Of a DNA stretch of 64,000 nucleotides, positions 2,191 to 4,906 are shown piece by piece; the stretch's first letter is position 1, and each line of letters starts with the position of its first letter. The DNA is from Candidatus Thorarchaeota archaeon (lineage in GTDB: Archaea > Asgardarchaeota > Thorarchaeia > Thorarchaeales > Thorarchaeaceae), in assembly GCA_020348985.1 (NCBI GenBank), contig CP070761.1, forward strand, positions 2,332,310 to 2,396,309, read 5' to 3'. The notes below the pieces were generated by a model, which was not told the DNA's origin, searched no databases, and saw nothing but the letters and a program-made list of their open reading frames with translations. The position numbers and the translations under genes are program-made.

Positions 2191-2583
2191 GTGAATATCA
2201 AATCGCCTCGAGAGGTGAGTGTATTCTCTAGTGGGCAAAAGGCCCATACGGAATATGCTGAACCCGTTAACACTCCTCCTTTTGAGAGTCTGGCTTCATC
2301 GTTTTTGTCTCTGGCAGAACATAGGCTAAGTGACATGCAGAAGACTGTTCTTGTGATGAGTGCCAAGGTCCTTGAATATCATGACCTGACAGTGACCGCT
2401 CTTGCAGACCATATGAGCCGAAGAAGCCACGTGCCTTACAGCACACTGAAGTGGAACTTGAGGCTCCTGACGAAGATGGGTCTCTTGGTGGGTGGTGACA
2501 CCAAGAACAGAGGTAGGAAAGCAAGTCTGACAGAGGCTGCCAGATTGCTCATCCACCACTTGGAAGATCGAGCGATCTCCTAG
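2191..2583 (+). CDS. winged-helix DNA-binding protein (ArsR/MarR-like); start uncertain
   Basis: TVTALADHMS...YSTLKWNLRLLTKMGLL...ASLTEAA wHTH pattern. Confidence 0.7.
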   Translation: MNIKSPREVSVFSSGQKAHTEYAEPVNTPPFESLASSFLSLAEHRLSDMQKTVLVMSAKVLEYHDLTVTALADHMSRRSHVPYSTLKWNLRLLTKMGLLVGGDTKNRGRKASLTEAARLLIHHLEDRAIS

Positions 2584-2645
2584 AGGTTTCACTCTGGGCA
2601 ATCCTCTCTTCTTCCTGTTTTTCTCTTCGGCAAGAGCCATTGGGT

Positions 2646-2696
2646 GCATCCCGCACTCGGGAGGAGCAATCGATTTTGCCCGTCCGTCATCGAAGC
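2646..2696 (-). promoter_or_regulatory. candidate eukaryote-type SECIS element
   Basis: RNA GCUUCG-AUGA-C-GGACGGGCAA-AAUCGA-UUGCUCCUCC-C-GA-GUG-CGGGAUGC: AUGA/GA core, 10-bp helix II with one mismatch, loop AA 11 nt after AUGA. Confidence 0.7.
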
Positions 2697-3490
2697 TTCT
2701 TGCCGAAGAGATTCTTTCCTTTTGATAGGCCCTCCAAGACCTTCTCTTTACTTATGCCAGCAGACATCAGAAGCTCAACAGACACTTCTTCTCCGGATCC
2801 CAGATTTCCCAGATTCCATTGGAGCGCAGATGCTATGTCCTTTGGTCCCATCTTCAGGTTTCGTCTGAGGTCGCGACGGGCATCCTCAACTTTCAGCTTT
2901 GCAGGAGGCGAAATCTCCCAACTGTCTGGTTGTTTGATTGAACTCATTCCAACATACAGTGGATTGTCGTCCCAAATCATCATTGTACCAGAGTCTGGGT
3001 CATACTGACCGCGGTCATCCTTGTAGCTTCTTGGACCACCCAGGTCAAAGTCCATGAAGTTGTAGACCTTCATGTCTTCCACTTCCATATCTCCTATGTT
3101 TTTCGTCGTATGTCGAATGATTATTGTTGGCTTGTTATAACTCCAGAGAGCTATGCTGAATCTCAGCATCGGCTTAGAGAAGCCTACAGGAGTCAAGTCA
3201 AGATCGACCCTGAGTGTCTGACCTTTCATCTCGTTCCGTCGAATTCGAATGATTCTCTCCTCTGTCGACTGAACGTGATGAACGAGATCGTCAAGCACAA
3301 AGGAGGCCCAGAACCCGCTCCTGTAGCCCGCTGGATTGCGCAACAACAACCTGTCCAGTCCTTTGGGATCAATCAAGCTGAGTCGCTTCATATAGAAGCC
3401 CTTACGACCTCTTCCTCAAGAAACACAGTTCACTGCATATGTCATGTCAAGTCTTGGAGACCGTCTTCCAGATTCCAAGGTCTCATACAT
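2687..3490 (-). CDS. putative selenoprotein (267 aa, Sec at codon 25 in CxxU), predicted beta-sandwich body
   Basis: The ORF-track protein 2687..3391 extends in frame through one TGA (3418-3416) to ATG 3490, giving MYETLESGRRSPRLDMTYAVNCVSUGRGRKGFYMKRL...; SD-like GGTGTGA and TTTATAT lie upstream; SECIS-like hairpin at the 3' end. Confidence 0.7.
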
Positions 3491-3496
3491 GATCGA

Positions 3497-3539
3497 TCAC
3501 ACCAACTGCCTTCCTTGTCGGGATTCTCGGAGATATAAA
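3497..3539 (-). promoter_or_regulatory. TATA box (TTTATAT 3539-3533) and SD-like GGTGTGA for the putative selenoprotein gene
   Basis: TATA about 45 nt upstream of ATG 3490; SD 6 nt upstream of the ATG. Confidence 0.6.
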
Positions 3540-3667
3540 GTGTACCAAGCAAGACCGCCTGCATGTGTGATGGCTTCGTGGCAATTCATAGTCGTACTCT
3601 CTTATCCTTGTCACAAACTTGATAAATATCACAAAGGACCGATGACGCGCTCAGGTGCGGACAAGCT

Positions 3668-4906
3668 ATGACTACTCTTACACTAGAGCAGCTACAGAAA
3701 TGGTACAGGAAGAGGCTTTCAAACAAGTCCAAGGATTTTACAAAGCTAGCTGAGAGAAGTTACAAGATAGTCGGGCGGACATTGAAAGATGTTGAGGAAG
3801 TCTCACAAGACCTGCTTGAAGCCAGTGATGATGATGACATCGAGCATCAAGGAATCGCCTCTCGATTTGCAATGAAGATTAGTGAAATCGTTGAAGGCTT
3901 TGACGTAGATAAGAAGGTCACCTACTCAAACACAGAGGAAATGCAGGAGGAGATTCAGAGATTCATTCAGGACCTTTGGGGCGCAGGAGCAAGATGGATT
4001 AAGCGGATGGATAAGAAGCACAAGAGCACAATCAAAGTTCTTGATTCCTACATGAAAGAGCTTATGCGCGAGATGAAGAAGATAGGCAAGATCCTGTATG
4101 AGTTTGCATGGATAAAGGACCTTGAACGTATTGACGGACGAATTACTACACTTCGTGATTTGACTTATGGCAAAGAGATCTTCGAGGAGCAAATCCGGCA
4201 GATCCGTCTAAAACTGGACGCTGCGGAGGCAGAATATGAGGCGGCAGAGAAAGCCTACGGTGACTTCAAAGACACATCAAACGTCGCTGAGATACTGAAT
4301 CTTGATCAAGAGTCCGAGCGAGTTGCATCTCTGTTGCGAATGCGGCTCAACACGCTCAGAAAAGCCGTGAAGAAATTCACTCAGCATGACACCGGGGTTC
4401 GGATTGGTCCCGCAGGCCATAGGGCTTTGGCAGATTATTTCGAAGACCCCTTCGAAGCCATCGTTGAGGAGCCTGATGGCACTCCCGGCCTTCTTGAGGG
4501 ACTCGGTGGAATGCAGAAGGCAATTGAAGGCGGACAATTGAAGCTGAAAGACCGGCTGGCCAGGAGAGCGATAGAGGAGATTGAAGAAATTCGAAATGGT
4601 GCCCTTTCGGAACTGCAAAGAACAGCAAAGGATATTGTCCAAAAGAGAAGAACCTACGCCGGATCAGAAGTCTACAAGCAAAGTGAAGAGATGACTTCTC
4701 GCCTTGATGAGGCGACGAAGAACCTAGAATATCATCGCAATGACCTTCTGAGAACAGGTGATGAGATTCAGCGTCAGATTGACAAGGTGGAGGAATTCCG
4801 AGAGAGAATAGAGTCTGAGATTCTCGAAGCGTTTGGCGAGAAGGTCATGATTCAGATTGATGACTTGGGTTTGGAGCCGCTCTTAGCCAAATGTACCGTT
4901 AGCTAG
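3668..4906 (+). CDS. coiled-coil hypothetical protein
   Basis: 412-aa E/K/L-rich helical ORF. Confidence 0.75.
   Translation: MTTLTLEQLQKWYRKRLSNKSKDFTKLAERSYKIVGRTLKDVEEVSQDLLEASDDDDIEHQGIASRFAMKISEIVEGFDVDKKVTYSNTEEMQEEIQRFIQDLWGAGARWIKRMDKKHKSTIKVLDSYMKELMREMKKIGKILYEFAWIKDLERIDGRITTLRDLTYGKEIFEEQIRQIRLKLDAAEAEYEAAEKAYGDFKDTSNVAEILNLDQESERVASLLRMRLNTLRKAVKKFTQHDTGVRIGPAGHRALADYFEDPFEAIVEEPDGTPGLLEGLGGMQKAIEGGQLKLKDRLARRAIEEIEEIRNGALSELQRTAKDIVQKRRTYAGSEVYKQSEEMTSRLDEATKNLEYHRNDLLRTGDEIQRQIDKVEEFRERIESEILEAFGEKVMIQIDDLGLEPLLAKCTVS

Follow-up and report, generated by a model that had tools for sequence, protein, structure and literature searches.

A probable three-armed SECIS element built around the stop codon of a Thorarchaeota selenoprotein gene

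The window, by which we mean the whole 64,000-nucleotide stretch of Candidatus Thorarchaeota DNA analysed here, carries on its minus strand a gene of 267 codons (coding sequence 2690..3490; 3490-2687 with the stop codon) that contains an in-frame UGA close to its start. The stop codon, UGA 2689-2687, is the first in-frame stop of a 234-residue open reading frame and upstream of that frame the reading continues through a single TGA (3418-3416) to an ATG at 3490. Counted from this ATG the internal UGA is codon 25 (3416..3418), lies 729 nt upstream of the stop codon and, read as selenocysteine (Sec), gives the motif C22-V-S-U25. The nucleotides GGUGUGAUC (3495..3503) before the ATG read as a Shine-Dalgarno-like sequence and presumably function as one; the UGAUC ahead of the ATG is kept in orthologs, where it is seen as 'U-S' two codons upstream of M. 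The divergent neighbor at 3668-4906 (plus strand) encodes a 412-residue coiled-coil protein with a weak match to Pfam VPS28 (E = 0.012, residues 5-191). This neighbor is kept beside the selenoprotein gene in the relative L058 and may be ESCRT-I-like.

Homologs of the gene product were found only in Thorarchaeota and Promethearchaeota MAGs, and every one is annotated as a protein of about 234 residues. We retrieved 46 loci and read the upstream DNA for 44. In all 44 the frame runs on upstream through one invariant TGA and the N-terminal extension is kept, with the consensus peptide MSEILETGNRxPRLDxxYxxECxxUGxGRxGFY. The annotated start, Met34, is Ile in most orthologs and hence cannot be the start. 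In 32 aligned sequences UGA25 is invariant, there is no further stop, and coding-type variation flanks the codon on both sides, the entropy before/after the TGA being 1.34/0.87 at third codon positions versus 0.37/0.44 at second positions. Within the same GTDB family the protein was matched at E ≤ 1e-10 in 34 of 41 sampled genomes, which represent 14 of 16 genera. Each of the matches reaching across codon 25, of which 32 are near full-length and two are N-terminal fragments, contains exactly one TGA. Distant homologs of 21-25% identity align a CxxC with the CxxU of the family, the preceding LD..(Y/F).V motif aligning as well, and the two motifs form the classical Sec/Cys pair. A conserved local recoding hairpin at UGA25 was not found in the orthologs. 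Judged by these alignments, the gene at 3490-2687 is a genuine selenoprotein gene. In a related genome in which no selD was found (G005), the gene occurs only as fragments encoding residues 1-82, with the TGA, and 218-262 (C8:20132-20515), which may be a decaying copy.

A search of Pfam and NCBIfam with the selenoprotein gave no family match. The AlphaFold model (pLDDT 91, pTM 0.90) has an all-beta fold, and as modelled it resembles the beta-supersandwich N-domains of GH15, GH94 and GH116 enzymes, glucoamylases among them (TM 0.6-0.67). Two of the modelled strands come from the N-terminal extension and turn at the CxxU, and block-mean pLDDT is 76-93 over residues 1-40.

The RNA element, to which we give the name SECIS on the grounds set out below, occupies 2619..2713 of the minus strand and therefore straddles the end of the coding sequence. 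Its three arms, helix I, the SECIS arm and a second hairpin, are given by the minimum free energy fold together with a model built from orthologs (R2, below). The fold of 2716-2616 is a three-way junction with z = -4.6 and a helix I of 17 bp (2711-2694/2638-2622). The 5' strand of this helix (2694..2711) lies inside the coding sequence, over the last 8 codons, with the A at 2697 bulged out; the 3' strand is 2622..2638. An earlier note on this DNA had proposed a weak helix I of UUCG/CGGG, which finds no support: the CGGG is part of the second hairpin and the true helix I is the 17-bp outer stem. Next come the AUGA core (2687..2690), which together with the GA is kink-turn-like and whose UGA doubles as the stop codon, as that note had pointed out, and, read from the sequence, a C at 2686. 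The 5' strand of helix II, GGACGGGC (2678..2685), pairs with its 3' strand, GCUCCUCC (2660..2667), to give 8 bp including one C.C mismatch (2682/2663) and one G-U. The apical loop AAAAUCGAUU (2668..2677, 10 nt) opens with AAAA and has the conserved unpaired A run on its 5' side. C-GA-G (2656..2659; C 2659, GA 2658-2657, G 2656) is the 3' side of the non-Watson-Crick quartet, whose pairs are U.G, G.A, A.G and C.C. From AUGA 2690-2687 through G 2656 the sequence is exactly that quoted in the earlier note. The note had also given helix II as 10 bp with one C-C mismatch; the mismatch stands but the length does not, as the comparative data give 8 bp and a 10-nt rather than a 6-nt loop, and the two extra A-U pairs of the longer helix are private to the window sequence.

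The second hairpin, GGG-AUGCA-CCC (2642..2652), follows the SECIS arm and precedes the 3' strand of helix I. Its conserved form is GGGnAGCACCC, and RNAfold on the window copy favors an overlapping GUGC/GCAC pairing at this place. A 107-residue open reading frame (2326-2649, minus strand) starts at the AUG in the loop of this hairpin and runs antisense to an HTH gene (2191-2583, plus strand); it is probably spurious, and relatives call the HTH gene alone there. Over the 3' element the window sequence is identical in contigs from two other studies, which show no differences at the element or at UGA25 where these are covered. Hence, the C.C mismatch is not an assembly error.

The arrangement is conserved. 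The stop codon is the core UGA in 43 of 44 ortholog 3' ends, and the base before it is A (38) or G (5). After the UGA and a single base, these 3' ends share a helix of 8 bp that closes a loop (mostly GUAAAGCnnnGCA); past the return strand come another single base and then GAG. Among 39 aligned orthologs the core U (T in the DNA), G and A never change, the GAG is invariant in the 33 sequences of the core alignment, and the loop adenines do not vary either. Helix II shows compensatory changes at 8/8 pairs with 94.9% of cells paired (39 sequences); the observed level of covariation was reached by none of 500 shuffles, and sliding the partner strand by 1-3 columns left only about 45% of cells paired. 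In the same 39 sequences both sides have changed at nine of the 12 aligned pairs of helix I and at five of the six pairs of the second hairpin. The 5' consensus of helix I over the last codons is UUCgaCAAGAAGAU, and its partner lies about 60 nt downstream. The AUGA, the GA and the loop adenines are kept where the TGA is kept. The RNA element is absent from two Cys-type homologs, one of which ends in TAA and the other in TGA-TAA followed by a T run. Both results agree with the earlier proposal that the element is a SECIS serving the distant UGA25, which is supported by the invariance of the TGA in orthologs and the lack of the structure in the Cys homologs.

The apical loops read GAAAGAGAAU and GAAAGAAAAGAA in close relatives of the window copy and GUAAAGCnnnGCA in more distant orthologs. 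The nearest relative, at 90% identity, preserves both the geometry and the C.C mismatch, and its loop opens with GAAA; in L058 (82% identity) helix II is down to about 4-5 pairs. The sub-lineage of the window copy thus has a weaker upper helix. The ortholog L051 (3180-3276) has a GUGA core that is out of frame; the frame stops at the UAA of the apical loop (GUAAAGC), so that the coding sequence extends through half of helix II. As L051 terminates at the loop UAA, the core UGA is not indispensable as a stop codon.

Detection of the element depends on how much of it is searched for. The 51-nt stretch that holds the core hairpin folds no better than shuffled sequences (z = -0.14), and a descriptor of equal quality gave 28 matches in the genome versus 13-22 in shuffled genomes. 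A core-only model (R1), built from 33 orthologs with the window left out, scored the window copy at only 12.6 bits (E = 0.75), which was still the top match in the window (2694-2654) and fell exactly at the stop codon. The apical loop of the window copy, AAAAUCGAUU, departs from the family consensus. Over the genome R1 recovered no other SECIS, that of selD included, and is too family-specific. The whole-junction model R2 drew on 27 orthologs (one counted twice) whose protein identity was 54% at most, again with the window left out. It gave the window copy 47.2 bits, part of which is owed to conserved codons and not to structure; E was 1.4e-9 in the window and 6.9e-8 in the genome, where this was the sole match; it also recovered 10 of 10 held-out orthologs at E ≤ 2.5e-8. 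Hence, the core hairpin alone is at chance level whereas the element in its context is far above chance. The Rfam SECIS models gave no match at the gathering threshold in the window, none at E ≤ 10 over 2300-3700 and, for RF00031, none genome-wide, and the control genomes were without positives too. The failure of Rfam does not refute a SECIS, as the same failure is reported in the literature: published tools miss all Asgard SECIS elements (Mariotti 2016, PMC4989117).

One published relative of the element is the lokiSECIS of Lokiarchaeota, in particular that of VhuU.1 (Mariotti 2016, PMC4989117). The likenesses are an AUGA before the stem, a GA after it, adenines that open the loop, a location where the coding sequence ends and, if the C.C at the base is counted, a stem of about nine pairs. 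However, the lokiSECIS has a fixed geometry (9-bp stem, 11-nt loop and an 'ultraconserved' G at the last loop position) from which the window element departs with its 8 bp and a 10-nt loop ending in U, and the loops of the family orthologs are 13 nt long and end in A. Unlike the lokiSECIS, the window element has a long lower helix and an inserted hairpin, of which we found no mention in the accessible text of PMC4989117, and its host gene is not VhuU, VhuD, HdrA, PrxL or SPS and has its Sec codon 729 nt away.

In core, stem, loop and location the element fits the eukaryote-like type I SECIS described for Asgard archaea (Huang, Xiao and Zhang 2024, PMC11227280). The type I core GA_[G/A]A, usually AUGA_GA, corresponds to AUGA 2690-2687 plus GA 2658-2657. 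The upper stem of 8 bp with one C.C lies within the published range of 7-15 bp and at most two mismatches, from which the L058 copy would fall out. The published loop is of 8-20 nt with adenines first and no ministem; the 10-nt loop of the window copy agrees, although it would shrink to 6 nt and fall short if the private A-U pairs form. Type I elements also lie at the 3' end, or directly behind it, of genes that contain an in-frame Sec UGA; the window element does so with overlap of the stop codon. Family orthologs also carry the GUAAA loop, G[U/G]AAA apical loops being those reported for Thorarchaeia (Huang 2024, PMC11227280). The element differs from type I in its host family, which lies outside the seven Asgard families of Huang 2024 (SelD, FrhA, HdrA, FrhD, Prx-like, AhpF-N and DsbA-like; PMC11227280), and in its three-way junction, which is absent from the accessible text of that paper, figures aside. 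The earlier description of a eukaryote-like SECIS is upheld, as an Asgard type.

A second element of similar architecture is found in the window's own genome. The selD gene there (G000:C1:2570150-2570320, minus strand, in L001) ends in CUA-UGA inside the core of its own type II SECIS. In thorarchaeial selD the stop UGA lies inside an [A/G]UGA core that is then followed by GAGGA, the lower helix GAGACCG/CGGUCUC is made with the last codons, and an extra hairpin precedes the 3' strand of that helix. The stop-in-core layout with a coding lower helix and inserted hairpin is present in 21 of 21 Sec-type selD genes from the 41 sampled genomes. The selD SECIS differs from the window element in having an apical ministem (type II), a helix II that begins directly after AUGA and an inserted hairpin with a GNRA-type tetraloop (GCAA in the window's genome), and R2 does not match it. 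Eukaryotic SECIS form 1 (RF00031) follows the AUGA_AA_GA scheme of the window element and likewise has a non-Watson-Crick quartet, a helix I, a helix II and a distant UGA; it differs in that its model gives no match, the window helix II is shorter, and the window element overlaps coding sequence and stop. The methanococcal SECIS resembles the element only in its place at the 3' end of an archaeal selenoprotein mRNA. The window element has no GAA_A bulge or upper-stem G-C run and its core is AUGA/GA, which bears out the earlier distinction from the methanococcal GAA/A type. The overlap of stop and core, which the earlier note had called unusual, is not: in addition to the 21 selD genes, the stop of Loki VhuU.1 overlaps the SECIS core, its closeness to the SECIS being argued to preclude recoding of the stop (Mariotti 2016, PMC4989117), and stop/AUGA overlaps are frequent in Asgard archaea (Huang, Xiao and Zhang 2024, PMC11227280).

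We conclude, with a probability that we put at nearly nine in ten, that the element serves a Thorarchaeota selenoprotein gene as its SECIS, that it belongs to the published eukaryote-like Asgard type I without ministem, and that as a three-way junction it would direct recoding of UGA25. The structure, its conservation and its context are shown by the analysis; the following account of factor binding, Sec insertion and termination is the most likely one and is inferred. The folded junction (2713-2619) would recruit archaeal SelB with Sec-tRNA(Sec), directly or via a kink-turn-binding protein, and UGA25, 729 nt upstream, would then be decoded as selenocysteine in the CxxU motif. A ribosome near the end of the gene, within the last dozen codons, would have to open helix I, then the core and one half of helix II, and the SECIS would be gone once the terminal UGA is in the A site. 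In this mechanism, whose last step the earlier note had proposed, the terminal UGA would be read as stop because the ribosome has unwound the SECIS.

The element may be a true SECIS whose overlap of stop and core is a frozen arrangement with no role in termination fidelity, a possibility that we take seriously while leaning against it. By this logic the obligatory UGA of the core, once in frame, would block any downstream shift of the stop codon, and an upstream shift would cut off codons that also serve as helix I. The overlap occurs throughout two unrelated gene families of the lineage, as is expected from inheritance combined with constraint; an upstream UAA or UAG would terminate equally well, and L051, which stops at its apical-loop UAA, shows that the core UGA is not strictly required. 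The data are as compatible with this account as with termination by melting. However, a frozen arrangement leaves unexplained the independent origin of the overlap in several families (selD here; vhuU and vhuD in the literature). It agrees with our preferred reading on what the element is and differs only in the purpose of the overlap.

Two further accounts deny that the element is a SECIS. The first takes the element for a conserved 3' structure that acts in mRNA stability, in forming the transcript 3' end or as a regulatory kink-turn of the L7Ae type, with UGA25 read through by other means; it could be argued from the second hairpin and the long lower helix, both of which lie outside the published SECIS models. 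We consider it improbable: the AUGA, GA and A-run hallmarks are invariant, selD with its certain Sec codon has the same design, the element is missing from the Cys homologs, UGA25 has no alternative recoding signal, and no T-run terminator follows the element. That the hairpin is a chance structure beside an ordinary 234-residue gene starting at ATG 3391, with the upstream TGA ending non-coding sequence or a separate small frame, is hardly credible. It has in its favor that all gene callers give 234 residues and that the core alone is at chance level, but most orthologs have Ile in place of Met34, the 33 codons before it are kept as protein with one invariant TGA and form two strands in the predicted fold, and neither the covariation nor the R2 score would be expected.

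The SECIS type and the overlap of stop and core are already known, and the layout is textbook for Asgard archaea and involves no new principle. The host family, in contrast, is absent from the seven families of Huang 2024, which a 2026 review repeats, and from NCBIfam, and no description of the three-armed shape was found in the accessible literature text, figures aside. The element certifies a selenoprotein family outside the Asgard selenoproteome surveys, present in 34 of the 41 sampled genomes and always with Sec. As no close Cys form exists, the family would be missed by searches based on homology to known families and on Sec/Cys pairs. Also of interest is the strict retention, in two unrelated genes, of a stop in the core, a coding lower helix and an extra hairpin. 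More speculatively, and in our view rather unlikely as a whole, the three-way junction with the stop and the last codons built into it, as here and in selD, might be obligate for every SECIS of Thorarchaeia, with termination not just tolerated but coupled mechanistically to the unfolding or resetting of the SECIS and its bound factors, and the element might mark a lineage-wide Sec-only family with a CxxU hairpin on a beta-supersandwich that is missing from the published lists of Asgard selenoproteins. According to Mariotti 2016 (PMC4989117) no SBP2 is known in archaea, and the element offers a defined RNA with which to study the recognition of a 3' SECIS by archaeal SelB in the absence of SBP2.

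The window's genome encodes much of the Sec machinery. Its selD has an in-frame TGA at the catalytic site (HG-U-SCK), and SepSecS, SelB and a Sel_Asgard homolog are clustered. Profiles for FlpD, NiFeSe hydrogenase and AhpC revealed no in-frame TGA that would indicate further selenoproteins in the genome. In the window's assembly tRNA-Sec was not found by ARAGORN (with and without introns), by RF01852 or by a hand-written pattern, and PSTK was not found with two profiles. A tRNA-Sec candidate from a relaxed ARAGORN search (C1:690224-690314) was dropped for its poor acceptor stem and lack of Rfam support. Both same-genus genomes have tRNA-Sec and PSTK side by side, and in one of them (G011) the pair adjoins the Sec gene cluster. 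The 'single contig' of the window's genome consists of 132 pieces joined by 100-N spacers and is not a closed chromosome, and one spacer (C1:947613-947712) abuts the selB-SepSecS-Sel_Asgard cluster exactly where G011 has tRNA-Sec and PSTK. As the same-genus genomes have both genes and the spacer sits at the expected place, tRNA-Sec and PSTK were probably lost to an assembly gap. The gene after SepSecS (L006:851-1459, minus strand; G000:C1:947577-948185) is the Sel_Asgard candidate and scores 130.5 bits with NCBIfam NF045535 against a cut-off of 132. Its product, which corresponds to the family named 'Sel_Asgard, putative selenocysteine system protein', may be the missing SECIS-binding factor.
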